A stretch of 59,535 bases of DNA, counting the filler, from Sandaracinaceae bacterium (GTDB taxonomy: Bacteria; Myxococcota_A; Polyangia; Polyangiales; JADJQN01), in the NCBI GenBank assembly GCA_947483975.1. It is 4 parts of 4 records of this genome, joined end to end, with 100 filler letters (N's around TTAATTAATTAA, not from the genome) between each part and the next. Parts side by side here need not be neighbours in the genome. Positions count along the whole stretch, not along the records: positions 15,121 to 29,990 come from CANKOL010000103.1; 3 more parts are not named here. One strand, given 5' to 3'. This document shows, in pieces, positions 6,969 to 26,064 of this stretch; the stretch's first letter is position 1; each line of letters begins with the position of its first letter. Both the position numbers and the translations under genes were made by a program. The notes under the pieces are model-generated. The model saw only the letters and a program-made list of their open reading frames with translations. It searched no databases and had not been told where the DNA came from.

Positions 6969-6996
6969 GGGCGGACTCACGCTGCCAGCCGCCGAC

Positions 6997-7081
6997 GCGC
7001 GCCGCTCAAACACCGCGCGTCGGCGGCAGCAGCGCGTCGGGCACTCCGAGCCTGCGCAGCGCGTCGCTGAGGTCGGCGGGG
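6997..7081. repeat. 85-bp direct repeat of 9109-9193 (3' end of the pseudouridine synthase gene)
   Basis: Alignment by eye: offset 2112 bp, 2 mismatches. Confidence 0.95.
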
Positions 7082-7095
7082 CGCCGTTGCGTGCA

Positions 7096-9006
<1,911 letters not shown>

Positions 9007-9108
9007 GCGCCGAGACTACTCGATGTGTGCGGCGAGAATGTTCGTGATCGAGGTCGCGCTCGAGGATTCGGAGAGGATGAGGGCCGTCGGCGGGAGGAGG
9101 CTCGCGCT

Positions 9109-9193
9109 GCGCGCCGCTCAAACACCGCGCGTCGGCGGCAGCAGCGCGTCGGGTACTCCGAGCCTGCGCAGCGCTTCGCTGAGGTCGGCGGGG
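9109..9193. repeat. Second copy of the 85-bp direct repeat (current 3' end of the pseudouridine synthase gene)
   Basis: Matches 6997-7081. Confidence 0.95.
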
Positions 9194-9825
9194 AGCGGCG
9201 CGGCGACGCTCATCGGCGCGCCCGTGCGCGGGTGTGGGAACACCAGCTGTGCCGCGTGGAGCGCGAGGCGAGTCAGGGCGTACTCGCTGCGGAATCTGCG
9301 GTTCGTCGCGCCGTCGCCGTAGTTGGTGTCGCCGACGATCGGGTGATGGAGGTGCTTGAGGTGCCGCCTGATCTGATGGAAGCGCCCCGTCTTCGGCTTC
9401 GCCTCGACGAGCGAGCAGTGCGGGCCCTCCCACAGGCGGCGCAGGTCCGTGACGGCGGCGACGCGCTCGCCGCCCTCGTCCTTCGGCACGGGGTAGTCGA
9501 CGACGAGGTGCTCGGGCGCGACGCCGCGGACGAGCGCGAGGTAGGTCTTCTCGACCTCGCCTTGCTCGAAGCTGCGCGAGAGCGCCGTCGCCATCTCGGG
9601 CGAGAGCGCGAGCAGCAGCGCGCCGCTCGTCGCGCGGTCGAGGCGATGCACGGTGTAGACGTGCCGGCCGAGGGTGTCGCGCGCGCGCACCATCGCGACG
9701 TCGCGCTCGCGCGTCATGCCGCCGCGGTGCACGAGCAGGCCCGACGGCTTGCACACGACGGCGAGGTCGTCGTCGGCGTAGAGCACCTCGATCGTCGGCC
9801 CGGCGCTGGGCTCAGTCGTCGTCAT
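9118..9825 (-). CDS. RluA/TruC-family pseudouridine synthase
   Basis: KPSGLLVH, VHRLDRATSG, KTGRFHQIRRH, HPIVGDTNYG, LALHA. Confidence 0.93.
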   Translation of the reverse strand: MTTTEPSAGPTIEVLYADDDLAVVCKPSGLLVHRGGMTRERDVAMVRARDTLGRHVYTVHRLDRATSGALLLALSPEMATALSRSFEQGEVEKTYLALVRGVAPEHLVVDYPVPKDEGGERVAAVTDLRRLWEGPHCSLVEAKPKTGRFHQIRRHLKHLHHPIVGDTNYGDGATNRRFRSEYALTRLALHAAQLVFPHPRTGAPMSVAAPLPADLSEALRRLGVPDALLPPTRGV

Positions 9826-10396
9826 CGCGCGGGACGTGCACGACGCCGAGGTCGGCGGACACGAGCGAGAAGAGCACCATATCGTGCCGCTCGCCCTTGA
9901 TCGCGCGCGCCGAGCGCAGCACTCCCTCGCGCACGAAGCCCGCGTTGAGCGCCACGCGCTGCGAGGCCTCGTTGTTCACGTCGGCGAACAGCTCGAGGCG
10001 CGCGAGCCCGAGCTCGAGCAGCGCCCACCGCGACAAGAGCCGCACCGCGCGCGTCGCCGTGCCGAGCCCGCGCATCTCGCGCACGACCCAGTAGCCGATC
10101 TCGCCCTTGTGGCTGCGCCAGTCGAGCTCGTGCAGGCCGCACGAGCCCGCGAGCAGGCGCGTCGCCGAGTCGATGATCGCCATCGGCATCGCGTTCCCCG
10201 TGATGCGCAGCAGATCGTGCGACTCGATCCACGCGCGCGCGTCGCGCTCCGTGTACGGCGTCGGCACGACCGTCCAGCGCGGGATCTCGGGGTCTTGGCA
10301 CGCGGCGACGACGGCGGGGATGTCGTCCTCGTCGAGGCCGCGGAGGGACACGACGCCATCGTCGAGGGCAGGGCTCGGGTGTTGGATCAGGTGCAC
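9812..10396 (-). CDS. GNAT N-acetyltransferase, RimJ/RimL family
   Basis: EIGYWV..RGLGTATRA, NEASQRVALNAGFVREGVLR. Confidence 0.9.
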   Translation of the reverse strand: MHLIQHPSPALDDGVVSLRGLDEDDIPAVVAACQDPEIPRWTVVPTPYTERDARAWIESHDLLRITGNAMPMAIIDSATRLLAGSCGLHELDWRSHKGEIGYWVVREMRGLGTATRAVRLLSRWALLELGLARLELFADVNNEASQRVALNAGFVREGVLRSARAIKGERHDMVLFSLVSADLGVVHVPRDDDD

Positions 10397-10496
10397 GCCC
10401 GGCTACGTTAGCGCGAGTGGCCGGGTCCGCTCGCCCCGTGTCATCATCGCGCTCTGACTGCGCGGCCCCCGCGCGCCCTGCTCCCGAGAAATACCC

Positions 10497-11207
10497 ATGA
10501 CTTCCCTTCGCGCCTCGCTCCTCGCGCTCTCCGCTCTTTCCCTGCTCGTCGCCGTCTCCGCTTGCGGCGGGGGCAGCACCACCCCGCCTGACGTCGACGC
10601 CGGGGGCGCGACCGATATGAGCGCGCCCGTCGACGGCAACGTGCCCGACGGCGCGCTGCCCGAGGACGCGGGCTCCGACGTCGACGCGAGCGCCCCCGAC
10701 GACGGCGGCTCGACCGATGGGCAGGTCTCGGGCGATATGTGCGTCTCGCCGCGCTGCCCGCCGATCCCGCCCGGCTGTCGCGTCGAAGCGCCGCTCGTCC
10801 CGTGCACCTGCGGCGAGATCAAGTGCGACGACGGCGGCGGCGTGCCGGGCACCGGCTGCGGCGGTCGCTTGGGCTCCTGCGCGGGCACGCTGTTCTGCGA
10901 CTTCACGGTCGCCTTCGACTGCGGCTTCGCCGACGGCACCGGCACCTGTCAGCCACGCCCGGACGTCTGCCCGAGCCTCTACTCGCCCGTCTGTGGCTGC
11001 GACGGCGTCACCTACTCGAACCTCTGCATGGCGAACGCCGGCGGCGTCGACGTGGCCGCTGACGGCGTCTGCGCGGGCCCGCCGCCGCCGCCCCCGCCCC
11101 CGAGCGACTGCCGCACGACGGGCTGCAGCGCGGGCAGCAGCTGTCAGCCGTGCCGCGGCATCGGCGGCGCGACCTACGTCTGCATCCCCGACGGCGCCGT
11201 CTGCTGA
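10497..11207 (+). CDS. Cys-rich lipoprotein with a Kazal-type domain
   Basis: Lipobox VSAC; CPSLYSPVCGCDGVTYSNLCMA. Confidence 0.85.
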   Translation: MTSLRASLLALSALSLLVAVSACGGGSTTPPDVDAGGATDMSAPVDGNVPDGALPEDAGSDVDASAPDDGGSTDGQVSGDMCVSPRCPPIPPGCRVEAPLVPCTCGEIKCDDGGGVPGTGCGGRLGSCAGTLFCDFTVAFDCGFADGTGTCQPRPDVCPSLYSPVCGCDGVTYSNLCMANAGGVDVAADGVCAGPPPPPPPPSDCRTTGCSAGSSCQPCRGIGGATYVCIPDGAVC

Positions 11208-11288
11208 AGCGCGAGCCCTGGCCCGCGAGCCCTGCTCCGCGAGCCTTGATTCGCTGAGTGAAACGGCGCCCACCGCGGCGCCGTTCGC

Positions 11289-12344
11289 TCAGGCGATCTC
11301 TTCGAGCTCCTCGAGCTCTTCCTCGTCGAGGCTCGCCGTCGTGTCGTCGAAGTGCACGTGCGACGCCTCGTGCGCCTCGGGGAAGAAGTGCGAGACGTAC
11401 GCGCCGATCTGCTGCGCCTTGTAGACGACGCCCCAGTCCCAGATGACCTCCTCGAGCGCGTCGAGGAAGTCCTGCGCGCTCTGGTAGCGCGCGTCGCGGT
11501 CCTTCGCGAGCGCCGTCAGCACGACGCGATCGAGCTGCGGTGGGATCACCTGGTTGAGGCTCGAGGGCGGCTCGACGTGCGCCTCGTGCACCTTGCGCAG
11601 CGTGTCGAGGTCGGTGTCCGCGTAGAAGAGCCGCTGCCCGGTGAGCAGCTCCCAGAGCACGATGCCCGCCGCGTAGACGTCGACGCGCGGGTCGAGCGGC
11701 AGCCCGCGCATCTGCTCGGGCGCGAGGTACGCGAGCTTGCCCTTGACGACGCCCGCCTGCGTCGCGTGCGCGCGCCCCTGCGCCTTGGCGAGCCCGAAGT
11801 CGACGATCTTCACGTCGCCCTCGAACGACACGAGGATGTTCTGCGGCGTGACGTCGCGGTGGATGAGATCGAGCGGGCGCCCCATCCCGTCGACCGCCTT
11901 GTGCGCGTGCGAGAGCCCCTCGAGCGCCCGGGCGATCACATGGCAAGCGATGCCGGCGTGCGGCGGCGCGCGCCACTCGCGCTCTCGCTCCCAGAGGATG
12001 CGCAGATCGCGCCCGTGCACGTAGTCGAGCACCAGGTAGCAGGTGCCGTCGATGCGCCCGAGGTCGTGGACCGCGGCGATGTTCGGGTGCGAGAGCTGCA
12101 CCGCGATCTTCGCCTCGTCGATGAACATCGAGACGAACTCTTCGTCGGCGGCGAGGTGCGGCAGGATGCGCTTGACGGCGAGCACCCGCTCGAAGCCGTG
12201 CTCGCCCGCGCGGCGCGCTTTGTAGACCTCCGCCATGCCGCCCGAGCCGATGCGCTCGAGTAGCTCGTAGTCTCCCAGCCGACCGAGGCGCGCTCCCGAA
12301 GGACCCACACGCACAGAGTTCTCCCTCCGGGCCCTCGCCGTCAA
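11289..12344 (-). CDS. Cytoplasmic Ser/Thr protein kinase (start uncertain)
   Basis: IGSGGMAEVY, HRDVTPQNIL, DFGLAK, KGKLAYLAPE; acidic tail. Confidence 0.92.
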   Translation of the reverse strand: MTARARRENSVRVGPSGARLGRLGDYELLERIGSGGMAEVYKARRAGEHGFERVLAVKRILPHLAADEEFVSMFIDEAKIAVQLSHPNIAAVHDLGRIDGTCYLVLDYVHGRDLRILWEREREWRAPPHAGIACHVIARALEGLSHAHKAVDGMGRPLDLIHRDVTPQNILVSFEGDVKIVDFGLAKAQGRAHATQAGVVKGKLAYLAPEQMRGLPLDPRVDVYAAGIVLWELLTGQRLFYADTDLDTLRKVHEAHVEPPSSLNQVIPPQLDRVVLTALAKDRDARYQSAQDFLDALEEVIWDWGVVYKAQQIGAYVSHFFPEAHEASHVHFDDTTASLDEEELEELEEIA

Positions 12345-12349
12345 CGTCT

Positions 12350-12373
12350 ACTTCCTGTTTCGGGACAGGAAGT
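12350..12373. promoter_or_regulatory. Perfect 9-bp inverted repeat (terminator or operator)
   Basis: ACTTCCTGT-ttcggg-ACAGGAAGT between the Kazal/antistasin gene and the kinase gene. Confidence 0.45.
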
Positions 12374-12464
12374 GCCGCGCGCACGACGACGGAAACGCAC
12401 ACGGCACAAGGGCTAGGTGCCGATGTGCCGTGTTCGTGTCGCGCGGCGCGAGGCGCCGCCAGCC

Positions 12465-13763
12465 TCAGCGGGGGAGCGGGACGCCGGCGTCCGCGCTGCC
12501 GCTGCCGGCGTCTGCACCGCCGCCGTCCCAGACCCCGGAGCACGCGCCGTAGCAGACGCTCGTGCCGGGCACGGCGAAGCAGGTCGTGTGGTCGCAGTAC
12601 TCGCTGGCGCTGCAGCCGGTGTCGTCGAGGCAGAGGCGGATGGGCGGGGGCGGCGGGGGCGGCTCGTTGCAGGCGCAGATCTCGCAGCCCGTCGCGTCAC
12701 GGGCGAAGCCGAACTCGCAGAAGAGCAGGCAGGCGAGCGGCGCGCAGGTCACGCCGGTGCGGCAGGTGCCCCAGCACATGGACGGCGGGCAGGGCGCGCC
12801 GGGCAGGCAGTCGGGCGCCGCGCAGATGGGCATCGAGTAGTCGCAGAAGCCGCCGGGGCCGCACTCGGCGTCGCTCGAGCAGAGGCTGCTCGGGGGGGGC
12901 GGCGGGTTGCACTCGCAGAGGGGGCAGCCCGTCGGGTCGGTGGCGTAGCCGAACTCGCAGTAGAGGCCGCAGAGCTCGCCGGTGCAGGTCGGGGGCGGGT
13001 TGCACGCGCAGAGGGGGCAGCCCGCCGGGTCCACGACGTAGCCGAACTCGCAGTAGAGGTCGCACGCGAGGCCCCCGCAGACGGGCGGCGGGTTGCACGT
13101 GCAGGTCGGGCAGCCGCTCGGGTCGGTGGCGTAGCCGAACTCGCAGTAGAGGCCGCAGCGCGGTCCGGGGCCACAGGTCGGGGGCGGGTTGCACTCGCAG
13201 GTCGTGCAGCCAGCGGCGTCGACGACGTTGCCGTACTCGCACCAGATGGGCGGGCAGGCGAGCGCCACGCAGGTGCTGCCGCAGGTGCCGCTGCTCGCGA
13301 CGGTCGTGTGCCCGCAGGTCGCCTCGCAGGAGTTGCCGTAGGTGAGGCCGTCGGCGCCGCAGACGGGCGAGTAGATCTCCGGGCAGGCGCACGCCTCGCA
13401 CGAGCCGGCGCCGTCGCCGCAGGTCGGGTAGCCGGGGCCGGGCGGGTAGCCCGGGCCGCCGTCGACGTCGTAGCAGCGCGGCAGCACGCAGGTCGCGCCG
13501 ATGTCGCACTGCTCGTCGGTCACGCACATATTGCCGACGTTGCAGGGCCCGCTGTGCGCGACCGTCGCGCCAGCCGCTTCGGCCATGCACGGGTTGGCGT
13601 AGGTCACTCCGTCGTCGCCGCAGACGGGCGCGAACTCCGTCGTGCAGGCTGACGGCGTCGGCTGGACCTCGTAGCAGCCCGCGAGGGCGGTGGCGCCCGC
13701 GAGGGCGGCGAGCAGGGTCAGGAGCCCAGTCTGCGGTCGGTGCGTGTTGATGCGGTGAGCCAT
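12465..13763 (-). CDS. Cys-rich lipoprotein with two Kazal domains and about five antistasin-like repeats
   Basis: Lipobox LAGC; PVCGDDGVTYANPC and PVCGADGLTYGNSC; repeated CxLYCEFGYxxDPxGCPxCxCN. Confidence 0.85.
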   Translation of the reverse strand: MAHRINTHRPQTGLLTLLAALAGATALAGCYEVQPTPSACTTEFAPVCGDDGVTYANPCMAEAAGATVAHSGPCNVGNMCVTDEQCDIGATCVLPRCYDVDGGPGYPPGPGYPTCGDGAGSCEACACPEIYSPVCGADGLTYGNSCEATCGHTTVASSGTCGSTCVALACPPIWCEYGNVVDAAGCTTCECNPPPTCGPGPRCGLYCEFGYATDPSGCPTCTCNPPPVCGGLACDLYCEFGYVVDPAGCPLCACNPPPTCTGELCGLYCEFGYATDPTGCPLCECNPPPPPSSLCSSDAECGPGGFCDYSMPICAAPDCLPGAPCPPSMCWGTCRTGVTCAPLACLLFCEFGFARDATGCEICACNEPPPPPPPIRLCLDDTGCSASEYCDHTTCFAVPGTSVCYGACSGVWDGGGADAGSGSADAGVPLPR

Positions 13764-13978
13764 GGCGATCCTCCGAGCAGGCACTAGAGCACACGCTGTG
13801 CCGCACCCAGTATCCGCGAAGATTTGGCGAGATTGCAAGGGAAGCGCGCGTCGGAGGCAGATCCATGGCGCAGTCGTCTGTGCCGACCTGTGCCAACGTG
13901 GGTGCCCCTCGGCGGGTCGCCGTGACGCGGGCCGCGCGTCTTGCGCGGACGCCGCGCGCCACGTAAGCAGGCGGGGTC

Positions 13979-14590
13979 ATGCGCCAAGAGCTTCTTCCGG
14001 CGGTGTTCGTTCTGGTGCTCGGGGTTCCGCTCGGGGTCGCCTTCTTCCAGGCGGCGGGCGACGGGGGGGCGCGCGCCCGGGAGGCGCCGCTGCGCGGGAT
14101 GCTCGGCAACCTCACCTACGACGCGATCGCCGCGGGGCACACGCCCGAGATGGGCTACTTCGGCGACGACCGCCTCGCGCCGGACTTCACGCTGCGCGAC
14201 AAGGACGGGCGCCCGTGGCGGCTCTCGGATCGCCGCGGCAAGAAGGTCGTCATCATGAACTTCTGGTCGATCACCTGCAGCGAGTGCGTGCAGGAGATGC
14301 CCACCGTCGAGGCGCTCGCGCGCGTCCTCGAGCGCCGCTACGACGACGTGGAGCTCGTCGCGATCAGCACCGACGCGGGCTGGCCGACGGTCGCCTCGAT
14401 GTTCCCGCCGGACTCCGCGCTGCACGTGCTCTTCGACCCGGACCGCAGCGTCGTCCTCGGCAAGTACGGCACGCGCCTCTTCCCGGAGACGTGGGTGATC
14501 GACAAGGAGGGGCTGATCCGCGCCCGCATCGACGGCGCGCGCGACTGGTCGAGCCCGCTCGCGCTCGACTTGTTCGAGCTCTATCGCTGA
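13979..14590 (+). CDS. TlpA/ResA-like membrane-anchored thiol-disulfide oxidoreductase
   Basis: APDFTL, NFWSITCSECVQEMP (CxxC), FPETWVIDKEG. Confidence 0.88.
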   Translation: MRQELLPAVFVLVLGVPLGVAFFQAAGDGGARAREAPLRGMLGNLTYDAIAAGHTPEMGYFGDDRLAPDFTLRDKDGRPWRLSDRRGKKVVIMNFWSITCSECVQEMPTVEALARVLERRYDDVELVAISTDAGWPTVASMFPPDSALHVLFDPDRSVVLGKYGTRLFPETWVIDKEGLIRARIDGARDWSSPLALDLFELYR

Positions 14591-14654
14591 GCCCGCGGCG
14601 CTCGCGGTCGCGCCGCTTGAGCCCTGTGGCGCGTTGGGCCATCCTCGCCGCGCC

Positions 14655-15020
14655 ATGTGGATTCGTTTCCTCCTCGTGCTCTCGGTCTGCGCGCTCCCGT
14701 TGGCCGCGTCGGCGCAGGTCGCGCCTCGCTCGTCTGCTGCGGAGGACGCTGAGGCGCGCGCGCTCTTCGACCTCGGCACGGCGGCGTTCAACGAGTCGCG
14801 CTACGCAGACGCGCTCGGGCACTTTCAGCACGCGTACGATCTGAGCCATCGCGCGGGGCTGCTCTACAACGTCGGGCTCTGCGCGGACCGCCTGCGGCAC
14901 GACGCGGAGGCGCTCGTCGCCTTCGAGCGCTTCCTCGAGGAGGTGCCGGAGCACCCGGTGCGCCGCGACGTCGAGGCGCGGGTCGCGGTGCTGCGCGGCG
15001 CGCTCGCGGACTCCGAAGCG
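14655..15020 (+). CDS. Secreted TPR protein, 3'-truncated (paralog of 4564-5538)
   Basis: EARALFDLGTAAF..YADALGHFQHAY..LLYNVGLCADRLR. Confidence 0.8.
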
Positions 15021-15120: not shown

Positions 15121-15266
15121 CCGTCCGCTACCCGGAGGCTGCGTAATGCTGTGTCCCGAGAGACCATCGGTAAGCCGTGTGCGGGAAATCCGCACGCACG
15201 GTTTGAAAGGGGGTCCTGCCCTTTCACTGATGAACTTCATCAAATGAAAGAGCAGGATCTACCAAT
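15121..15266 (+). mobile_element. 3' end of a group II intron (end of the intron-encoded ORF, domain V, domain VI)
   Basis: ORF tail VRYPEAA* ends at 15146; domain V AAGCCGTGTGCGGGAAATCCGCACGCACGGTTT (15172-15204) with AGC triad; domain VI stem TCCTGC..TTTCA/TGAAA..GCAGGA with bulged A near 15261; terminal AY (AAT). Confidence 0.9.
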
Positions 15267-15552
15267 GAGCGGCTCGACGACGATGAAGGCCAGCGAGTTC
15301 AAGGCGCAGTGTCTCGAGCTGATGGATCGCGTCGCCGCGTCGGGCGAGGTGATCGTCATCACGAAGCGAGGCAAGGCGGTCGCGCAGCTCACCGCCTTGC
15401 CGGTGGCGAAGCCGCGGACGCTCGCGGGGTACTTCAAAGACAAGCTCGACTTCATGGGCGATGTGCTCTCGCCTATCGACGTCGCCTGGGGACCGGCGGA
15501 GCCCTCGATCGCGCCGCCCAAGGCGAAGCAGCGCCGCGGAGCGAAGCGGTGA
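15265..15552 (+). CDS. Phd/YefM-family antitoxin (alternative start 15283)
   Basis: MKASEFKAQCLELMDRV..GEVIVITKRGKAVAQL; stop overlaps the toxin GTG. Confidence 0.9.
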   Translation: MSGSTTMKASEFKAQCLELMDRVAASGEVIVITKRGKAVAQLTALPVAKPRTLAGYFKDKLDFMGDVLSPIDVAWGPAEPSIAPPKAKQRRGAKR

Positions 15553-15950
15553 TCCTGCTCGATACGCACGCGATGCTGTGGCGAGCGATGGACGACCGGC
15601 GCCTCGGGCGACGCGCGGCCCGACGGATCGACCAAGCGCTCAACGCGGGCGAGCTCGCGGTGTCGGCGTTTTCGTTCTGGGAGGTGGGCCTGCTGGTGGC
15701 CGCGGGGCGCTTGCAGATGCGCGCCACCGTCGACGAGTTCCGGCTGGCGTCTCTCGCCGCCGGGATCACGGAGGTCCCCGTCGACGGCAGGATCGCGCTC
15801 CTCGCCACGCGCCTCACGGGGATGCACTCGGACCCGGCAGACCGCCTCATCGTCGCGACCGCGCTCGAGAGGGGCGCGACGCTCGTCACCGCCGACGCGA
15901 AGCTCCTCGCGTTGGCCGCCGGGCCGGACTGCCTCGACGCGCAGACGTAG
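15549..15950 (+). CDS. vapC: VapC/PIN-domain toxin
   Basis: ILLDTH, SAFSFWEVG, HSDPADRLIVATA, LVTAD; GTGA translational coupling. Confidence 0.9.
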   Translation: MILLDTHAMLWRAMDDRRLGRRAARRIDQALNAGELAVSAFSFWEVGLLVAAGRLQMRATVDEFRLASLAAGITEVPVDGRIALLATRLTGMHSDPADRLIVATALERGATLVTADAKLLALAAGPDCLDAQT

Positions 15951-15993
15951 AGTCCGCGTGGCTGGCACGGGACGAGCGCCGCACGCGCGGCGT

Positions 15994-16091
15994 GGAGACC
16001 GACCAAGGTTGACCGGAGACCGACCTGACCGGAGACCGACCAAGGTTGACCGGAGACCGACCAAGGTTGACCGGAGACCGACCAAGGTTGA
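15994..16091. repeat. Tandem repeat of GGAGACCGACCAAGGTTGACC (21 bp, about five copies; the second has a 5-bp deletion)
   Basis: Copies start at 15994, 16015, 16031, 16052 and 16073. Confidence 0.95.
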
Positions 16092-16388
16092 GCGCTCGCG
16101 GCGCGCGGTCGGCTCACGCCGCCGCCGCTCCACCGCCTCCGCAGCGTGCTCGGAGTTGCGACCGACGACGGTGGACCGCCCCTGGCGCGTGCGCGGCGTT
16201 TCGCAGAAGGCACTCGCGGGCGCGCGCTGCCAACCCGACGATGACCTCGTCGGCGCTCGACCTCGCTGGTTCGAACCGCGAGCACGGGCTCCGCACGGTC
16301 GCGCTTCGTGATTCCAGCCGTGGGTTTGTGCGCGGAGCGGTCGAGTGGCCTCGTCCAAGCGGTGGGTTGGGAGAGCGCGCGCTCGACC
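16044..16388. repeat. Degenerate phased array of GSTCGASC-like palindromes, period about 42 bp
   Basis: 16044 GGTTGACC, 16086 GGTTGAGC, 16127 GCTCCACC, 16170 GGTGGACC, 16212 (weak), 16255 GCTCGACC, 16297 GGTCGCGC, 16339 GGTCGAGT, 16381 GCTCGACC. Confidence 0.6.
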
Positions 16389-16401
16389 GCCCGCGTTCGT
16401 T

Positions 16402-16432
16402 CGCAACTGATCGCGGGAGGCACCGACAAGGG
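16402..16432 (+). promoter_or_regulatory. Bipartite motif CGCAACTGA-N12-CCGACAAGGG, putative ECF-type promoter
   Basis: Same boxes and spacing as 6022-6052. Confidence 0.65.
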
Positions 16433-16459
16433 GCGCCACAACGTCCCCGGAGGTCCCCC

Positions 16460-17269
16460 GTGTCCCACGCGCCCTATCGCAAGTCCTACGAACTCATCGA
16501 AGCCGAGCTCCTCGCCGTGCCGGAGAGCGACCTCCGGCACCCCAACGTCGACGCGCCGTCCGCCGTGCTGACGGTGATCGGCGCGCTGCCGAAGCTGCTG
16601 ACGCTGCGCCCGCTCATCGAGCGCGAGCTACCGCGCTTCCCCCTCGACAGGCTCGACAAGCTCGAGGCGTACGCGAAGGGCTTCGGGCACGCGCACGCGC
16701 TCTATCTCGCGTCGCGCGCGCCGAGCACGACGGTCGCGGGGCTCGCGGCGCAGGCCGAGCAGGCCTCGGCGCAGCTCGAGGAGGCCGCGCGCCCGCTCGC
16801 CGCGCGTGGCCTACTCGACGCCGGACAGTGCGCGCGCTTGACCGTCAGGGCGCCCGGCAGGCGCTCCTACAAGACGGCCGTGTTTCGGCTGATCGGCTTC
16901 GTGGAGCTCTTCCGCGAGGGCGCCGCGCGGGTGGTGGGCAAGACCTTGGTCACCGACGCCGACCTCGCGGACGCCGAGCGCCTCGCCGCTGCGCTCGGGG
17001 ACGCCATCGGCCTGCGCGAGCACGGCGACCCGGAGGAGGGCGCGTCGAACGACTCCGCGCGCAACCGGCGCCGCGCCTACACGCTGTTCTGGAACGCCTA
17101 CGACCAAGTCCGCCGCGCGGTCCTCTACCTGCGCTGGGACACGCAGGACGCTGACCGCTTCGCGCCGTCGCTCTACGCCGGGCGCAGCAGCGCGCCCGCC
17201 CCGCTCGACGACAGCGCGCCCGCGTCGGACGGGCCGCCGTCGGTCTCGGGGCCGAGCGCGGAGCCGTGA
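16460..17269 (+). CDS. Uncharacterised alpha-helical protein (paralog of 6096-6968)
   Basis: SD GGAGG before GTG 16460; RRRAYTLFWNAYDQVRRAVLYLRWDTQDADRFAPSLY. Confidence 0.8.
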   Translation: MSHAPYRKSYELIEAELLAVPESDLRHPNVDAPSAVLTVIGALPKLLTLRPLIERELPRFPLDRLDKLEAYAKGFGHAHALYLASRAPSTTVAGLAAQAEQASAQLEEAARPLAARGLLDAGQCARLTVRAPGRRSYKTAVFRLIGFVELFREGAARVVGKTLVTDADLADAERLAAALGDAIGLREHGDPEEGASNDSARNRRRAYTLFWNAYDQVRRAVLYLRWDTQDADRFAPSLYAGRSSAPAPLDDSAPASDGPPSVSGPSAEP

Positions 17270-17326
17270 CGCTCGGCCCGCGTCAGGTTCGGCGCACGCG
17301 CAGCTCTTCAGGCCGCCGACGTCAGC

Positions 17327-18184
17327 TCACTGCGCCGTGTCGAGGTAGATGCGCGCGCCGAGCGACGCGACCCACGAGCTGGCGGAGATCGTGTCGCCGC
17401 CGCCGCCCGCGATGAACGACGTGAACTGCCAGGAGCCGACGAGGTCGACGAGGGGCGCGCCGCCCGAGTCGGCGACGGCGTAGCCGAGCTCGAGGCCGAG
17501 CGGGACCGTCAGCGTGTCGCCGGGGCCGGGGTCGGACACAGCGAAGGAGAGGCCTGTCGAGATGCCGAGCCAGAAGTTGTCGGTCGCGTTGACGACGAGC
17601 GCGACGGGGATCGAGACGACCATCTGGTTCGGGTCCGAGGCGACGAACATCAGGAACGCGCCCGTGCGGAGCGCGACGGACGGCGACGCCTTCCACCAGA
17701 TGGGCGCGCCCACCTGCAGCCGGAAGTCCCCCTCGACCGGGAGCCAGACCTCCGCGCGGGCGGCGACCTCCACGTCCCCGCCCACCATGCGGTACTGCCC
17801 ATACACCGACGGATTGCCGTACTTGACCTCGGGTGAGAGCGTCAGCGGCAGCACCATGGCGCCGACCTCGAGGTCGTCGGTGATGCCGTAGCTGGCGCCC
17901 GCGGCCAGCCCGACGAAGACCTCCGTGCACGCCGAGAGCGTCCCCGCGGAGAAGCAGACTTTGACGAAGCCGAGCGACGCGTCGATGCGCAGCCGCCCTT
18001 GGTCGAGCGTCAGCGGACGCTGCGCGTTGACGAGCGAGTAGCCCTGCGCCGGTACGACGGCGCCTTCACCCGCCGGCATCACCGAGCCGTCCTGCGCTGC
18101 CGCGACGTTGCCCGCTCCACCCACCGCGACGACCGCGGCGAGCCACAACCACGACGACCCCATTCGACGATTCGATGAACGCAT
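17327..18184 (-). CDS. Secreted protein, probable outer-membrane beta-barrel
   Basis: Signal peptide; QRPLTL motif; alternating amphipathic beta strands; C-terminal LGARIY. Confidence 0.65.
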   Translation of the reverse strand: MRSSNRRMGSSWLWLAAVVAVGGAGNVAAAQDGSVMPAGEGAVVPAQGYSLVNAQRPLTLDQGRLRIDASLGFVKVCFSAGTLSACTEVFVGLAAGASYGITDDLEVGAMVLPLTLSPEVKYGNPSVYGQYRMVGGDVEVAARAEVWLPVEGDFRLQVGAPIWWKASPSVALRTGAFLMFVASDPNQMVVSIPVALVVNATDNFWLGISTGLSFAVSDPGPGDTLTVPLGLELGYAVADSGGAPLVDLVGSWQFTSFIAGGGGDTISASSWVASLGARIYLDTAQ

Positions 18185-18289
18185 TTCCCCTGGCCTCTCT
18201 ACCGCCCCAACGCGGGCGGAAGCGAGTCTGCGGGCACACGCTCGCAGACTCGTGAGAGGACTGTACCCACGGTCCCCCGGAGTACAAGA

Positions 18290-18308
18290 AGGCGGCACGG
18301 TGCCGCCT
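18290..18308. terminator. GC-rich hairpin downstream of the ABC-F gene
   Basis: AGGCGGCA-cgg-TGCCGCCT, next to three CTTCGCG heptamers. Confidence 0.45.
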
Positions 18309-18341
18309 CCCTTCGCGCTTCGCGCTTCGCGCCTCGTGCCG

Positions 18342-19982
18342 TCAGCCGCGTGCGCCGTCCAGGCGGGCGAGGCGGGCCTCGTCGGCGAGGTACTCTTCGT
18401 AGCGCATGTGCAGGTCGAAGATCTTCGGCTTGCCGTCCGGGCCGTGGCCTAGCTCGAGCACGCGCGTGATCAGCGAGTCGACGAATTGCACGTCGTGGCT
18501 GCTGACGATCAGGCAGCCTGGGAACTTGAGCAGGCCGTTGTTGAGCGCCGTGATCGACTCGAGATCGAGGTGGTTCGTCGGGCCATCGAGCAGGAGCACG
18601 TTCGGGTCGGTCAGCATCAGGCGCGCGAGCATGCAGCGCACCTTCTCGCCGCCGGAGAGCACCGACGGCGACTTCTTCGACTCGTCGCCGGAGAAGAGCA
18701 TCCGGCCGAGGAAGCTGCGCACGAAGTTCTCGTCCTTGTTCTCCGAGAACGTGCGCATCCACTCGATCAGGTTCGGCTGCGAGCCGGCGCCCGACGCCGC
18801 GAAGTACTCGTCGTACTCCTTCGGGAAGTAGCCGAGGTTCACCGTGCGCCCCCAGCGCACCTCGCCCGCGTCCGGCTTCACCTCGCCGGACAGCACCGCG
18901 ATCAGCGCGGAGGTCGCCGCCTCGCTCCCGGCGAGCGCGAGCTTCTCGCCGCGCGAGATGGAGAAGCTCAGGTTCTCGAACAGCACCTCGCCCTCGCGCG
19001 ACTTGCTGAGCCCCTCGACGAAGAGCACCTCGCGCCCAAGCTCGCGCGTCGAGTCGAAGACGACGTACGGGTACTTGCGCGACGACGGCTTGATGTCCTC
19101 GAGCGTGATCTTCTCGAGCTGGCTCTTGCGCGAGCTCGCCTGCCGCGACTTGCTCGCGTTGGCGCTGAAGCGCTGCACGAACGCCTTCAGCTCCTTGATC
19201 TTGTCTTCCTTCTTCTTGTTCGAGTCCTGCCGCTGCCGGAGCGCGAGCTGGCTCGACTCGTACCAGAACGAGTAGTTGCCGCTGAAGAGCGTCACCTTGT
19301 GGAAGTCCACGTCGGCGACGTGCGAGCAGACCTTGTCGAGGAAGTGCCGGTCGTGGGAGACGACGATGACGGTGTTCTTGAAGTCGTAGAGGAAGTTCTC
19401 GAGCCAGAGGATCGAGTCGACGTCGAGGTGGTTCGTCGGCTCGTCGAGCAGGAGGATGTCCGGCTCGCCGAAGAGCGCCTGCGCGAGCAGCACGCGCACC
19501 TTCTCGCCGTCGTCGAGCTCCTTGACGAGCTTGTCGTGTCGGTCGGTGCCGATCTGCAGCGCGCTCAGCAGCGTCGCGGCCTCGGACTCGGCGTTCCAGC
19601 CGTTGAGCTCGCTGAACTCCGCCTCGAGCTCCGCCGTGCGCGCGCCGTCGGCGTCGTCGAAGTCGGCCTTCGCGTAGAGCGCCTCCTTCTCGGCCATCAC
19701 GCGGTAGAGGCGCTCGTGGCCCATCAGCACGGCGGTCAGCGTCTTGACCTCGTCGAAGGCGAAGTGGTTCTGCCGCAGCATGCTGAGCCGCTGCCCCTTG
19801 CCGATGACGACCTTGCCGGAGGTCGGCTCCTGCTCGCCGGAGAGGCACTTGAGGAACGTGGACTTGCCCGCTCCGTTGGCGCCGATGAGGCCGTAGCAGT
19901 TCCCGGGCGTGAACTTGATGTCCACGTTCTCGAAGAGGATCCGGCTGCCGAACTGGAGAGAGAGCTTGTCGGTCGAGATCAT
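18342..19982 (-). CDS. ABC-F family ATPase (YbiT/YkpA-like ribosome-associated factor)
   Basis: GANGAGKST, LLLDEPTNHLD, VSHDRHFL, FSGNYSFW linker; second NBD LSGGEK; no TM domain. Confidence 0.93.
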   Translation of the reverse strand: MISTDKLSLQFGSRILFENVDIKFTPGNCYGLIGANGAGKSTFLKCLSGEQEPTSGKVVIGKGQRLSMLRQNHFAFDEVKTLTAVLMGHERLYRVMAEKEALYAKADFDDADGARTAELEAEFSELNGWNAESEAATLLSALQIGTDRHDKLVKELDDGEKVRVLLAQALFGEPDILLLDEPTNHLDVDSILWLENFLYDFKNTVIVVSHDRHFLDKVCSHVADVDFHKVTLFSGNYSFWYESSQLALRQRQDSNKKKEDKIKELKAFVQRFSANASKSRQASSRKSQLEKITLEDIKPSSRKYPYVVFDSTRELGREVLFVEGLSKSREGEVLFENLSFSISRGEKLALAGSEAATSALIAVLSGEVKPDAGEVRWGRTVNLGYFPKEYDEYFAASGAGSQPNLIEWMRTFSENKDENFVRSFLGRMLFSGDESKKSPSVLSGGEKVRCMLARLMLTDPNVLLLDGPTNHLDLESITALNNGLLKFPGCLIVSSHDVQFVDSLITRVLELGHGPDGKPKIFDLHMRYEEYLADEARLARLDGARG

Positions 19983-20053
19983 GACGCGCCCCCACTAACC
20001 GCTCGGGGAGGTGGAGGCAACACGCCCGCGTGAGAGGTCGGCGCGCGCGGCGC

Positions 20054-21394
<1,341 letters not shown>

Positions 21395-21436
21395 GGGCAG
21401 AGCATCGGGGCTCCGCGGGAGGAGCGCAAGATCGGC

Positions 21437-21518
21437 TCGCGGGCGAGCGCGCTCAGAACGTCGCGGGCGAGCGCGCTCAGAACGTCGCGCCGCGCGCGCT
21501 CAGAACGTCGCGCCGCGC
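21437..21518. repeat. Triplication of a 19-bp segment spanning the stop codon of the upstream gene
   Basis: GCGCGCTCAGAACGTCGCG at 21447, 21471 and 21494. Confidence 0.9.
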
Positions 21519-22924
21519 ACGATCGTGCGGTCCGCGCCGCCGAGCGGGGCGTCGCTCTGCCCGACGCGCGCCCACGTCACGCCATCCGTCGAGAAGCGCA
21601 GCGAGTACGTGAGCGTGCTCCAGGGCTCGCGCGTCATGCGCTCGCGCGGGAGCGCGAAACGGTAGCGGTAGTCGTTGCCGACGCGCTCGACGAACGTCAG
21701 CGGCTCGAGCTGCGGCGCGCCGCCGTCGAAGGCCCAGAGCGCCTCGGCGTAGAGCCACTCGGCGGGCGCGCCGGCGTCGGTCAGCCCGGGCACCCAGACG
21801 TCCGCGTCGACGAACATACAGGCGCGCTCGCGCGAGTAGGAGTCGACGACGGTGGGCTCGGCGAGCCCGCTCGTGTGCGCGCACGCGCGGCTGAACGAGC
21901 CGCCGACGCCGCCCGCCCAGCCGACGGCCGCGGGCGCCGCGGGGAGCACGTCGAAGCGGTAGTTCGCGCCGAGGTTGGAGTCCCAGGTCACGCAGCTCGA
22001 GCCCGCCCCGCTGCGGTTCTCGAACCAGAGCTCGACCGACGTCGCGCCGCGCGGGAGCGCGACCTCGAAAGGCACTGGGCGCGCGGCGCTCGTCGGGGTG
22101 CCGCCGACGGAGTCGAAGGCTCGGACGCTGCCGCTGGTCTCTTCGCCGGAGGGCGAGAAGCGCGCGTGCGCGATGAGGTCCCACGCGGGGTAGCCGTTGT
22201 GCGTGTGGCGGCACTCGGGGAGCCGCTCGAGGGCGTAGTCGATGACCGCGGTGCCGCCCGCGACGAGCGCGCCGCGCTGCGCCGTCGTCCAGCCAGCGCG
22301 CAGCGAGAGGTGCGCGACGGAGGCGACGGGGTCCTGCGCCGGGCAGACCGCGGGGGCCTCGCCGACCGACCAGCCGTTGGCGCTCGAGAGCGTGTAGTTC
22401 TCGAAGTCGCCGGCGCGCCGGTTGTGATCGAAGCGCCGCGCGCCGTCGGGCGTGCGCACGAAGGGCGAGACCTCGAGCGAGGTGCGCGAGAAGCTCGTCG
22501 TCGACACTCCCTCTGCGACGGTGTGGTCGAAGATGCGGAAGCTGTACCGCTGAAAGCCGGGCCCCGCGCCATCGGCGAGCGTCGCGGGGACCTCCCACCA
22601 CTGCGTCGAGCCGGAGAGCGCGTAGAGCACCGCGGGCACGCCGCCGGCGTCGAGCAGCGCGTCGGAGACGTCCATCGTGCCTGCCCAGACGAGCCAGCAG
22701 CTTCCGGCGACGCACTGCGTCTGGTAGCCGCCCGTCGTGTTCGGGGGGCGCCGGAGCGCGCGCAGGGCGACGCCGCACGCGTGATCAGCCGAGTCGAAGC
22801 CGTCCGCCGCGCCGAGCAGCGGACCGTCCGCCGCGCTCGCGGCTGCGGTCACGGCGAGGGACGGACCGACGTCCGCGCAGGCGGCCAGGAACATCGAGCA
22901 CACGAGCAGTCGGGCGACGCGCAT
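21500..22924 (-). CDS. Lipoprotein, DUF6209-like myxobacterial family
   Basis: Lipobox LAAC; CRHTHNGYPAW..VELWFEN..WDSNLGANYRF; family name from recall only. Confidence 0.65.
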   Translation of the reverse strand: MRVARLLVCSMFLAACADVGPSLAVTAAASAADGPLLGAADGFDSADHACGVALRALRRPPNTTGGYQTQCVAGSCWLVWAGTMDVSDALLDAGGVPAVLYALSGSTQWWEVPATLADGAGPGFQRYSFRIFDHTVAEGVSTTSFSRTSLEVSPFVRTPDGARRFDHNRRAGDFENYTLSSANGWSVGEAPAVCPAQDPVASVAHLSLRAGWTTAQRGALVAGGTAVIDYALERLPECRHTHNGYPAWDLIAHARFSPSGEETSGSVRAFDSVGGTPTSAARPVPFEVALPRGATSVELWFENRSGAGSSCVTWDSNLGANYRFDVLPAAPAAVGWAGGVGGSFSRACAHTSGLAEPTVVDSYSRERACMFVDADVWVPGLTDAGAPAEWLYAEALWAFDGGAPQLEPLTFVERVGNDYRYRFALPRERMTREPWSTLTYSLRFSTDGVTWARVGQSDAPLGGADRTIVRGATF

Positions 22925-23086
22925 CGGGCCTCCAGGGGAGTCTTCCCGCAGGAAGGTCCGGACCCTACCCCCGCCGACACCCGGCGTCGATGTGGGAACG
23001 TACGTATCGGTAGGTCGACGCGGCGCGTCGTCCTCCGCGCGGCTCCGCGTCGTTCCGCGCGGCACCAGCAGCACCGCAGGCCACGG

Positions 23087-25123
23087 CTATGCGCGGGGCC
23101 GCCGAGCGTACAGCGCGGCGAGCTCCGCGAGCTTGTACGGCTTCTGCAGCCAGGCATCAGGCTGCACTTCGCGCGGCTCTTCCCGGAGCCGCGCCACGTC
23201 GTAACCGCTCGCTACGACGACGTGCAGGCTCGGGCGCAGCAAGCGGAGCGCCGCGAGCACCTCCCAGCCGTCGAGGCCGGGCATGCTCAGGTCGAGCAGC
23301 ACGCTCGCGATCACTGCGCCCGGCGCCGCGAAGGCGGCGAGGGCAGCCTCGCCGCTCGCGACGGTGACCGCCTCGAGGCCGAGGCGCCGCAGCATCCGCG
23401 CGCTCGCGCGCAGCATCCCGGCGTCGTCGTCCACGACCAGCACCGTGCCCGCGGGCGCGGGGGTCGCTACTGCCGGCCAGTGCGCGTCGCGCGGCGCGGG
23501 CCGCCCAGGCGTCTCGGGCACCTCGTCTCGGCGCAGCTCGGGCAGATAGGCGCGCACCGTCGTCCCGCGGCCGAGCGCGCTCTCGACGACGATCGCCCCG
23601 CCGCTCGCGCGCATGATGCCTTGCGCGACGGGGAGCCCGAGGCCCCGACCCGCGGACTTCGTCGTGAAGAACGGCTCGAAGAGCCGCTCGCGCGTCGCCG
23701 CGTCCATGCCGGGGCCGTCGTCGCGCACCTCGAGGCACGCCCAGGCGCGCGTGCCGTGCGCGGCGCCGGGCTCGAGACCCGCCTCGGCGGGCCACGCGCT
23801 GACTCGCCGGGCGGTGACTCGTACGGTCCCGCCCGCGGGCGCGATGGCCTCCCACGCGTTCGTGACGAGGTTGATGACGACGACGCGCAGCGCCGCCGGG
23901 TCGACCGCGCAGACCGGCAGGCCTCCGTCGAGCTGAAGCGCGAGGTGCACGCCGGGCGGCAGCGCGGTGCGCAAGTACGGCAGCAGGGCCGTGACCTCGC
24001 GCTCGAGCCGCCCGGGTCGCAGCGGGTGCCGGTCCTCTCCGAGGTAGGTGAGCAGCCCGCCGCTGAGCGCCGCCGCTTGCTGTGCCGCCCCCTCGGCGTC
24101 GGTGAGCATCGCCTCGACCGCCGGGCTCACCTCGCCGCGCGCGAGCTCGAGGTTCCCCTGGATCGCGCCGAGCAGGTTGTTGAGCTTGTGGGCGATCCCC
24201 GCCGCCATCACGGCGAGGCTGTCGCGCCTCTGCGCCTGCGAGAGCTGACGCTCGAGCACGCGCTGCGTGCGCTCGGTCTCGCGGAGGGCTTCGTTCGCCG
24301 CGACGGTCGCCGTGATGTCGACGTAGGCGACGAGGACGGCGCCCTTCGGCTCTGCGATGGGCAGGGCGCGCATCGTGTACCAGCGCCTCACGCCGTCGGG
24401 GCTGTGGCACGCGCCCTCGGTGGAGAACCGCCGTAGCTCGCCGCGCTGGACCTTGCGGACGCCTCCCTCGGCTTCGAGGGCGCGCGTCGTGTCTCCCCAC
24501 GCGGGGTCGACTCGCACGAAGTAGTCAGCCCCCACCCCCCAGGTACGCTCGTCGCCGGCGCCGTTCTCTTCGGCGAAGCGCCGCCAACCCGCGTTGATTC
24601 GGAGGAGCTTGCCGTCCGGTCCGACGACGGCGACGTTGGCGTCCGTCGCGTCGAACATGTACTGAACGACGTCGGCCTCGTGCACGAGCGCCCCCGCCGC
24701 GCGCTTGCTCGCGGTGACGTCGGAGACGGTGAAGCAGACGCCGCGGACGGCGCCGTCAGTGCGCATCGGCTCGTACTCGACGTCGAAGTGCAACGTGTCC
24801 GCGCCCGCCGCGAACGACCTCTCGACGCGCGTCGCCTCGCCGTCGAGCGCGCGCTGAAAGTGCTTGTCGAACTCGGCGCGGTCAGCCAGCCGCAGGACCC
24901 GATCGATGGAGTCGCCGCGGCGGAGCGCGAGCCCGTGCACGGCGAGCGCCTTCTCAGCCGCCGTCCGGTTGAAGTACCGGACCGAGCGGTCGGGATCGAC
25001 CCACAGGAACACCTCCGGGCTGTGCTCGAAGACCTCGGCGAGTATGCGCTCAGCCTCCGCTTGGGGGGCCGAGGCCGTCGCGCTCTCCTCGGAGCGCCGT
25101 GCAGCCGGCTCCGTCGTCGTCAT
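23087..25123 (-). CDS. PAS-domain hybrid sensor histidine kinase with receiver domain
   Basis: Two PAS-like regions, GIAHKLNNLL, NLVTNA, DDGPGM, FEPFFTTK..GRGLGL, receiver VLVVDDD..LLDLSMP..QKPY. Confidence 0.92.
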   Translation of the reverse strand: MTTTEPAARRSEESATASAPQAEAERILAEVFEHSPEVFLWVDPDRSVRYFNRTAAEKALAVHGLALRRGDSIDRVLRLADRAEFDKHFQRALDGEATRVERSFAAGADTLHFDVEYEPMRTDGAVRGVCFTVSDVTASKRAAGALVHEADVVQYMFDATDANVAVVGPDGKLLRINAGWRRFAEENGAGDERTWGVGADYFVRVDPAWGDTTRALEAEGGVRKVQRGELRRFSTEGACHSPDGVRRWYTMRALPIAEPKGAVLVAYVDITATVAANEALRETERTQRVLERQLSQAQRRDSLAVMAAGIAHKLNNLLGAIQGNLELARGEVSPAVEAMLTDAEGAAQQAAALSGGLLTYLGEDRHPLRPGRLEREVTALLPYLRTALPPGVHLALQLDGGLPVCAVDPAALRVVVINLVTNAWEAIAPAGGTVRVTARRVSAWPAEAGLEPGAAHGTRAWACLEVRDDGPGMDAATRERLFEPFFTTKSAGRGLGLPVAQGIMRASGGAIVVESALGRGTTVRAYLPELRRDEVPETPGRPAPRDAHWPAVATPAPAGTVLVVDDDAGMLRASARMLRRLGLEAVTVASGEAALAAFAAPGAVIASVLLDLSMPGLDGWEVLAALRLLRPSLHVVVASGYDVARLREEPREVQPDAWLQKPYKLAELAALYARRPRA

Positions 25124-25243
25124 GGGTGAAGCTCCGCGAAATCAGGCGACTCGCGGCGTGTTCGGCACGACGCGCGATGGTCCCGCTCGTCCCGGCAGGT
25201 ACGCACCGGGAGCGCTCGCGCCGTAAAGAATTCGCCTCGGCGA

Positions 25244-25900
25244 CTACAGGTTCGCGGGGTCGACCATCGCCGGCTGCGCGTCGGGGATCCAGCCGAACAC
25301 CAGGCGATAGCCGCCGGGCGCGGGCAGCTGCGCGACGACCCGGCCGGTCGCCGGATCGTGGTGCGCGTCGAGGGTGCGCCAGTGCGAGCAGAGCGGGCCG
25401 CCGAGGCGGGCTGTGTGGGTCGCGTTGCAGATGCCGGCGATCTCCATCGCGAGCACGAACTTCATGTTCGGACGCGCCGTCAGCGTGCGCTGCCGCATCG
25501 AGACCTCGACCGGCGCGCGGGAGGCGTCGATCTGGCCGTCGAAGGCGAGCACGGCGCCCTGCCGCACGAAGCCGACGAGGACGTCGCTCGGGCGGAACGG
25601 GGTGCGGCTCGCGCTGAAGTTGAAGGTCTGAGAGGAGCTGATGCGGTTGCCGGCGGGCAGCACGAGCACGGCGCCGTTGCCTAGCTCGAAGCGGGCGCCG
25701 AGCGCGTTGCCCGCTTGGCCGCTCGCGCGGTCGCGTCCGGTGAAGACGGGCTGTGGCGGGGGCGGAGGCGGAGGCGGCTCGACGTCGTTCCCCGGGTTGT
25801 CTTGGGCGCTGACGCCGACGGCGGTGAGCGCGAGCGCGGTGCTGCAGAGGAGCAGGGCCGCGAGCCACGAGCGACAGAGAGAGGCGGTGTGGTGGCGCAT
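25244..25900 (-). CDS. Secreted hypothetical protein
   Basis: Signal peptide, poly-Pro linker, beta-rich domain. Confidence 0.7.
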   Translation of the reverse strand: MRHHTASLCRSWLAALLLCSTALALTAVGVSAQDNPGNDVEPPPPPPPPQPVFTGRDRASGQAGNALGARFELGNGAVLVLPAGNRISSSQTFNFSASRTPFRPSDVLVGFVRQGAVLAFDGQIDASRAPVEVSMRQRTLTARPNMKFVLAMEIAGICNATHTARLGGPLCSHWRTLDAHHDPATGRVVAQLPAPGGYRLVFGWIPDAQPAMVDPANL

Positions 25901-26064
25901 GGTTTGACTCGGAGAGACGCGCGACAGCGCGGCTCGATTCAGATGGTGGAGACGGTAGCGCGGATGGGCGGCCGAAGCGACGACGACGGATTGCGTCGGC
26001 GAGGCGCTCGTTTTGTCGAGGGAACGCCCCGGACGGCCGGGCGCAAGAATGGTAAGAAGGGGAG

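Follow-up and report, generated by a model that had tools for sequence, protein, structure and literature searches.

In partition cassettes such as ParMRC of R1, TubZRC of pBtoxis and the type Ib ParFGH systems, phased repeats upstream of the genes serve both as operator and as assembly site. A small, fast-evolving adaptor binds the repeats and recruits a more conserved nucleoside triphosphatase (NTPase), which ParR does via its C-terminal tail. Iterons are directly repeated sites of about 21-22 bp that share one face of the DNA and lie beside the autoregulated gene of the protein that binds them. In the FtsK-KOPS, SpoIIIE-SRS and Streptomyces TraB-clt systems, membrane-anchored motors read a short DNA word through a winged-helix domain of their own. 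We have analyzed a 59,535-nucleotide stretch of the Sandaracinaceae bacterium assembly GCA_947483975.1 (hereafter, the window), in which a gene for an all-helical protein (16460-17269) is preceded by a decayed periodic array of sites (16117-16413). Our preferred reading, held tentatively and drawn from sequence comparison, is that the region represents an orphan version, in part decayed, of a cassette of two genes found in the Polyangiaceae; in this cassette the helical protein would read the array, regulate its own expression and dock a HerA/FtsK-type ATPase.

The cassette resembles the partition cassettes in being a two-gene operon with repeats directly upstream, which the adaptor is presumed to bind. 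It differs in that its NTPase is of the HerA/FtsK superfamily instead of the actin-, tubulin- or ParA-type, in a period of 41-43 bp against 11-12 bp, and in occurring in many copies per genome; neither of its two proteins gave a hit in 72,556 plasmid records. Fold searches with the models of both partner proteins returned generic helical bundles only, in which no ribbon-helix-helix, helix-turn-helix or ParB fold could be recognized. Iteron-Rep systems likewise have same-face repeats beside a gene, and half of a 42-bp unit is about 21 bp. Here, however, the copies are many and chromosomal, the helical protein matched no Rep family in Pfam or NCBIfam, no Rep structure was among the results of the fold searches, and the phage collection searched with the ATPase, like the plasmid records, gave no match. 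The FtsK-family motors combine a member of the same ATPase superfamily with short repeated DNA words, as the cassette does. In contrast to them, the cassette ATPase begins only about 30-40 residues before its own P-loop and matches HerA_C (PF05872, E 8.5e-10), DUF87 (PF01935) and related ATPase families alone in Pfam; FtsK_SpoIIIE (PF01580) reached 16.3 bits against a cut-off of 24, and no further (DNA-reading gamma) domain was found. Its arrays are also private to each cassette and lie at the cassette's own predicted promoter.

The cassette resembles HerA defence systems (Sir2-HerA, DUF4297-HerA, MADS) in a patchy, multi-copy occurrence in variable neighborhoods and in weak profile matches of the ATPase. 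In PADLOC these were partial matches to mad8 (E 1.8e-13) and to several HerA models; in NCBIfam, HerA, CedB and TraD models scored far below their cut-offs, as did HerA_antiphage (E 1.4e-9, 37.1 bits against a cut-off of 800). By sequence, the nearest solved relatives are HerA and YjgR. Unlike the defence systems, the cassette has no Sir2, DUF4297 or NurA-like partner, and the partner proteins encoded upstream of the ATPase match no PADLOC model. No conserved third gene was seen, since at five loci the genes found next after the cassette, five in all, have no mutual resemblance. To our knowledge, no described defence system contains a phased palindrome array. The titles and opening lines of abstracts in the literature held nothing relevant on 42-bp repeats or palindromes in Sorangium or myxobacteria, nor on HerA with centromeres or iterons, FtsK-HerA in Myxococcota or HerA in Sorangium. 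For the cassette of phased palindromes, helical protein and HerA/FtsK-type ATPase as a whole, there was no family, fold or literature match.

Four contigs, with N spacers between them, make up the window; they come from an assembly of 5.29 Mb in 524 contigs with about 72% G+C and a completeness of 81% by marker genes. Contig C103 (window 15121-29990) carries the gene at 16460-17269, hereafter the target gene, and contig C102 (window 1-15020) carries a second family member, locus 1. The target gene lies on the plus strand and starts with a GTG codon, 6 nt downstream of a GGAGG ribosome-binding site (16449-16453, plus strand) that aligns with the same element in the copy on contig C206. It encodes 269 amino acids and belongs to the class-1 "adaptor" family of helical proteins. 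The first-pass annotation had named it a paralog of locus 1, and this was borne out by tblastn, which aligned the two at 29% identity over 275 amino acids (window 6150-6941, E 8e-16). A profile search returned 10 family matches in the genome, among which the C206 copy is the nearest to the target (73% identity). The AlphaFold2 model of the target protein contains helices only, with a mean predicted local distance difference test (pLDDT) score of 90.0 and a predicted template modeling (pTM) score of 0.70. No Pfam, NCBIfam or PADLOC family was matched by this protein. Its tail ends without the Pro-Phe (PF) tip of its relatives, and ATPase similarity is absent from the whole of contig C103 at E<=1. 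Because the tip and the ATPase are both missing, the target is an orphan copy of the cassette.

Locus 1 comprises a plus-strand array (5705-6050) with nine copies of a 7-8-bp near-palindromic core spaced 41-42 bp apart, which Tandem Repeats Finder (TRF) missed, followed by a plus-strand gene (6096-6968) of 290 amino acids. This protein has kept the PF tip; no ATPase gene lies downstream, and ATPase similarity is likewise absent from contig C102 at E<=1. The last core of the array (6036) is situated between a -35-like and a -10-like word (6022-6050), and a site inside such a promoter-like element suggests repression.

Loci were drawn from named genome records as well as from 40 genomes of relatives. 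The helical-protein family was present in 10 of 41 genomes, its own included, and the named records yielded 30 loci from Polyangiaceae metagenome-assembled genomes, Sorangium cellulosum So0157-2, Sorangium sp. So ce176 and So ce1128. At the level of 50%-identity clusters, a profile search found 4,444 representatives at E<=0.001 and 1,811 at E<=1e-30. All listed relatives of both protein classes described below carry the source name "hypothetical protein", and no member seen had a name, a Pfam match or a fold already described. Four longer proteins of about 570-618 amino acids (P0054, P0055, P0056 and P0187) each contain two copies of the family domain.

The array upstream of the target gene is real, of about seven units, and decayed. 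Within 16092-16459, lags of 42 and 43 bp are the two strongest in autocorrelation (z 2.25 and 2.22), with a typical maximum of 2.5 in dinucleotide shuffles, and there is no 21-bp peak (z -1.3). The check for a 21/42-bp periodicity that had been proposed for this region is thus borderline: the expected lags come out on top, but with z of only about 2.2, and the half-period is missing. A weight matrix was then derived from the units of the C206 paralog alone and applied to the target upstream region. It peaked at 16117, 16160, 16245 and 16329, with an additional peak at 16283 that is 4 bp off phase. A six-tooth comb with a period of 42-43 bp scored -128.1 at the target, compared to -187.8 +/- 12.5 in shuffles and -195.2 +/- 15.0 in random genome windows, and the observed score was reached by none of 300 shuffles and none of 300 random windows. 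Since the comb score is unmatched in either control, we take the plus-strand array at 16117-16413 to be genuine and related to that of C206; the upstream regions of the two copies also align pairwise, best across the promoter-proximal 90 bases.

These results bear on the first-pass annotation, which had listed nine periodic palindromic sites and described the locus as an independent copy of the same architecture with a different motif. The sites noted at 16127, 16170, 16255 and 16339 are supported, as they correspond to the four in-phase matrix peaks at a constant offset of -10, and the core that had been seen there is the better-kept part of each unit. No matrix peak fits the sites noted at 16212 or 16381, and those at 16044 and 16086 fall inside an unrelated 21-bp tandem repeat (15994-16091, described below), which is the strongest repeat within the annotated coordinates. 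The claim of an independent copy with a different motif was overstated, given that two sites are foreign and that the array is a decayed relative of the one at C206. Downstream of these units is a promoter-like element (16402-16430, plus strand) composed of a -35-like six-base word (16402-16407), a spacer of 16 bases and a -10-like seven-base word (16424-16430). These words align with those of the C206 copy, and the element probably acts as a promoter.

The same architecture, a 41-43-bp array followed by a family protein, recurs at other paralogs in this genome and in other genomes, including that of Sorangium cellulosum So0157-2, which supports the shared architecture that the first-pass annotation had described at two loci. 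TRF reports repeats of period 42-43 upstream of the C206, C131, C196, C123 and C304 copies. For a count across the family, we used 46 distinct loci, each with at least 150 matched residues and at least 250 bp of upstream sequence; dropped beforehand were two duplicates (L021, L036), three loci with less than 250 bp upstream (L026, L041, L049) and six with fewer than 150 matched residues (L009, L027, L054-L057). The top autocorrelation lag was 41-43 bp in 25 of the 46, or 28 with the doubled lag included. Among 600 random windows of 680 bp from the target's own genome, 20 had a top lag in this range (binomial p 4e-25), and those top lags were nearly always divisible by three, which is what coding sequence would give. 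Coding repeats were excluded as the source of the arrays because many have periods of 41 or 43, which are not divisible by three; the array repeats are noncoding.

Arrays of complete cassettes contain from 3 to more than 10 units with a period of 41-43 bp, or about four helical turns. Orphan loci have them as well (10 of 19, against 16 of 24 ATPase-linked loci), and well-formed examples precede the orphan genes of locus 1 (nine sites), C304 and L010. Because orphans keep their arrays, the arrays go with the helical-protein gene and not with the ATPase. It had also been noted that the motif differs between arrays, and indeed each has its own palindrome, with inverted-repeat arms of 6-11 bp. In L001, L034, L043, L032 and L047, the palindromes look by eye like versions of a single theme, a change in one arm being matched by its mirror image in the other. 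The same kind of paired change, also read by eye, sets one C206 unit apart from its neighbors in the central 8-mer. Locus 1 and L005, whose proteins are 64% identical, repeat one shared core, and a relationship is recognizable between the target units and those of C206, whose protein is 73% identical. Two other classes of repeat were considered and ruled out: the whole 41-43 bp is repeated head to tail, with only short linkers that vary, unlike a clustered regularly interspaced short palindromic repeat (CRISPR) array, and the palindromes are mostly loopless and, in the target region, without an Rfam match, unlike a transcribed structured RNA.

One orphan gene, L037 of Sorangium cellulosum So0157-2, has a nine-unit 43-bp array. 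The gene that follows it (3459-4556) has matches to sigma-70 regions 2 and 4 and resembles an extracytoplasmic function (ECF) sigma factor. RNA-library contigs of a relative that is 90-96% alike fall exclusively on the coding part of L037 (2311-3196) and leave the array bare, and these contigs are uninformative on transcript starts and on the parts left uncovered.

At most loci, a P-loop ATPase of 455-484 amino acids is encoded on the same strand directly after the helical-protein gene. Across the 46 loci, it is present at 24, absent at 19 and cut off by a contig end at 3. The first-pass annotation had included neither this partner, nor the C-terminal tip, nor the orphan state of both loci in the window. 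The two genes are closely coupled, with the ATPase ATG 3 nt after the stop codon of the helical-protein gene in C206 and an overlap of the genes in C47. The P-loop residues G47, S48, G49 and K50 and an acidic pair, D334 and E335, are invariant in 17 ATPase sequences. We read the acidic pair as the Walker B motif and, because these residues are invariant, consider the ATPase likely to be active. In 120 pairs of cassettes, mean identity was 66.7% (60-80) for the ATPase and 39.1% (28-50) for the helical protein, and in no pair was the helical protein better conserved than the ATPase. One genome holds at least four ATPase-linked cassettes in addition to orphan adaptor copies. Among 201 Myxococcota genomes sampled, cassette-type ATPases (>600 bits) were found in five, all of one order. 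ATPase matches at E<=1e-60 occurred in 75 of the 201 in all, the lower-scoring version nearly always once per genome. The target's own genome encodes this lower-scoring version on contig C154 (about 6203-8551); it has about 780 amino acids, of which about 320 are extra C-terminal residues.

The helical protein has about 270-320 amino acids in complete cassettes, and in many members it carries a disordered, proline-rich tail with a Gly-x-Pro...Pro-Phe tip. As read from the sequences of the tails, PF occurs within the last 12 residues of 23 of 25 ATPase-linked proteins and of 5 of 21 orphans (Fisher p 2.4e-6); the two ATPase-linked exceptions have Pro-Leu and Ser-Phe. A second class of cassette was found on contig C47 (L058, G000:C47:8400-12100; features at 681-836, 1092-1252, 1437-2213 and 2213-3625 of the locus). 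There, a cassette-type ATPase is preceded by a different helical protein of 259 amino acids, with 43-bp and 21/43-bp repeats upstream. This protein aligns with the family over its last 15 residues only (hhalign, 15 columns), which are the tip. For this protein, 91 relatives were found in Polyangium, Sorangium and Sandaracinus. We infer that the tip is a docking element for the ATPase, the strongest comparative argument being that two partners with no other relationship both carry it. Neither the C206 nor the C47 cassette was flanked by terminal inverted repeats within the stretches examined.

From these observations, the following mechanism may be proposed. The helical protein would bind the palindromes of its own cassette as a dimer, and the four-turn spacing would place all sites on one face of the DNA, allowing the cooperative assembly of many dimers. 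The resulting nucleoprotein complex, beside the promoter and in some copies over it, would set the expression of the cassette itself; in complete cassettes, the tip would dock the ATPase at the address given by the array. The target has kept a gene, a promoter-like element and a decayed array, and would be at most a self-regulated DNA-binding remnant. The reader is presumed to be encoded by the cassette because one genome holds many different palindromes. By exclusion it would be the helical protein, since orphans without an ATPase keep good arrays and the helical protein is the variable component, and it would be dimeric because the arrays are palindromic with changes mirrored in both arms.

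Several results weigh against this reading. No DNA-binding fold was recovered for the helical protein: the best Foldseek hits had E 0.14 (PDB) and 0.18 (BFVD), and the best VIA-align score (Z 8.3 over 99 residues) is in the range of unrelated helical bundles. The C47-type protein matches no Pfam or NCBIfam family either, its best fold match being a generic helical bundle at Z 8.0. The helical proteins are acidic to neutral, with isoelectric points of 4.9-6.3 and a core net charge of -8 to +1 in 12 members. Eighteen of the 46 loci show no 41-43-bp top lag, although some of these may result from misplaced start estimates. Conservation of the palindrome is lopsided in the target and in C206, one arm being better preserved than its partner, and the strict symmetry expected of a dimer site is not obvious there. 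Lastly, the sharing of motifs among close relatives is expected from shared descent alone, because gene and array are adjacent and inherited together, which leaves the co-evolution of each protein with its own array, suggested in the first-pass annotation, unsupported.

The alternative that survives best concerns the target alone. Its array could be a relic, in which case the units would have been drifting without function since the loss of the ATPase and the tip, and the gene would be kept for another reason or be vanishing; we regard this as a serious if somewhat doubtful possibility. The target array is the most decayed of those inspected, its units being far more degenerate than those of C206, C123 or locus 1, and its autocorrelation alone is not significant. 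At the target, the T-tract that other copies have ahead of the -35-like word is degenerate, and the protein tail is shorter than that of the family, whose profile match continues through the TGA stop. What speaks for continued function is the intact reading frame, the existence elsewhere of a 96%-identical protein of equal length (P0001, 11 member sequences), the retention of promoter-like words and a ribosome-binding site, and a core word that has kept its phase at four to five positions.

A second alternative is that the arrays are promoter architecture for a host factor or for DNA shape, with phased T/A tracts bending the DNA and the palindromes arising from local duplication and drift. In many copies, one can recognize by eye, between array and gene, a T-tract and then two words, the first of six bases and the second containing CGA, with 16-17 bases between them. 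Of the 10 family loci in the target's genome, 7 have this pattern upstream, and it is common to unrelated genes, since 53 of its 60 occurrences genome-wide are away from the family. In addition, each unit in L005, L006, L013, L017 and C304 contains, at a distance of about half a unit, another palindrome that is rich in T/A; this one is alike between these cassettes while their specific palindromes are unlike. Near-identical units in C123 and L037 indicate recent duplication. Against this, none of 12 other sites with the promoter pattern had a 41-43-bp lag among its top three, which argues that the array tracks the family and not the type of promoter. Within arrays the specific palindrome is the part best kept while linkers vary, which argues for selection on that word, and a single host factor could not read the many different palindromes of one genome. 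We therefore consider this explanation improbable.

The promoter pattern resembles what we take to be the features of ECF sigma factor promoters ("AAC" at -35, "CG" at -10). A divergent ECF sigma factor that autoregulates its own promoter was considered as the identity of the helical protein and dropped, there being no sigma family or fold match. The pattern also precedes unrelated, array-less genes on contigs C147, C169 (two sites), C81, C56, C148, C495 and others, among which an FHA-like regulator and two copies of an Rpn/transposase-like gene were recognized by eye. It may represent a promoter class of this organism.

It is also conceivable, though quite unlikely, that the palindromes are read by the ATPase or by a protein encoded elsewhere, and that the helical protein is a regulator or substrate of the ATPase. 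The acidic character of the helical proteins and their lack of a recognizable DNA-binding fold would fit this, and the ATPase does have variable segments (residues 11-30, 87-141 and 406-421 in C206 numbering) in a superfamily whose motors can read short repeated words, as in FtsK-KOPS and TraB-clt. However, the ATPases differ far less than the palindromes do, the orphans at locus 1, C304 and L010 keep well-formed arrays with no ATPase gene nearby, and no conserved third gene was seen. Recognition of DNA structure instead of sequence, in which any palindrome would serve by extruding as a cruciform or hairpin and co-evolution would be unneeded, is similarly hard to credit: symmetry is indeed kept while the palindromes differ completely between cassettes, and the mirrored changes in the C206 unit would agree with it, but the arms are short and mostly loopless, and both the target and C206 have preserved one half-word more strictly than the symmetry itself.

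If the helical protein is the reader, as we prefer, the cassettes as a group could be "addressed motors" of the Polyangiaceae, in which an adaptor of a new fold loads a HerA/FtsK-type ATPase onto a private array via its Pro-Phe tip. Copies would not interfere with one another, the whole would act as a chromosome-positioning or genetic-conflict system, and orphans would be spin-off regulators. This wider proposal is speculative and, as a whole, rather unlikely to hold in every part. The role of the motor might be DNA positioning or segregation, remodeling of complexes, or conflict with mobile elements; a conflict or selfish role fits better than housekeeping because the cassettes are patchily distributed, multi-copy and fast-evolving. 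Were the helical proteins to read their own arrays, they would constitute a new DNA-binding fold with naturally diversified specificities and a new way to address a HerA/FtsK-type motor to defined DNA sites, and the many mutually independent protein-site pairs per genome would be of interest as a toolkit. The cassette family accounts for a conspicuous class of tandem repeats that lie between genes in Sorangium, Polyangium and related organisms, whose genomes are large. Cultured carriers include Sorangium cellulosum So0157-2 and Sorangium sp. So ce176 and, for the second class, Polyangium species and Sandaracinus amylolyticus. The target locus itself is a degenerate orphan, and its value is in having led to the family.

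The surroundings of the target are a variable neighborhood. Directly upstream of its repeats is a plus-strand gene pair for a Phd/YefM-like antitoxin and a PIN-domain (VapC-like) toxin (15265-15950), and at the very start of contig C103 is a 3' piece of a group II intron with domains V and VI (15170-15227, plus strand; RF00029, 42.5 bits, E 2e-6). Apart from the intron piece, Rfam returned nothing up to E 1 on 15121-17600. Across the family, the neighbors of the cassettes include a toxin-antitoxin pair, nucleases and transposase-like genes. A nuclease-like gene was recognized by eye near the L033 cassette (4826-5710), with weaker candidates near L035 and L045. L031 is accompanied by an AAA ATPase, found by scanning, and a second gene, and L036 by a gene that by eye is transposase-like.

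The 21-bp tandem repeat at 15994-16091 (4.9 copies, 87% matches, TRF score 161), is a member of a genome-wide dispersed repeat and lies outside the family array. Its 13-nt core occurs in 97 genome copies with at most one mismatch, against about 3 expected. Most copies are in short intergenic arrays with periods of 21-24 bp, and in one case 44 bp, each array having its own linker. Such arrays were located on contigs C333, C38, C171, C5, C151, C15, C460 and C523, the one on C151 sharing an irregular partial unit with the repeat beside the target. The core common to the dispersed repeat is about 14 bp, and the linker is specific to each array. By BLAST, the 21-bp repeat was found in 12 places of its own genome only and in none of 20 relatives, among them one of the same genus.

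Other tandem repeats were observed in the window. A 93-bp repeat in 3-4 copies (12901-13274, minus strand) lies inside a cysteine-rich modular open reading frame (12465-13838, minus strand). A perfect 18-bp repeat is present in 5.3 copies at 39538-39633 (100% matches), and a 15-bp repeat in 9.2 copies at 40075-40212 (91% matches).

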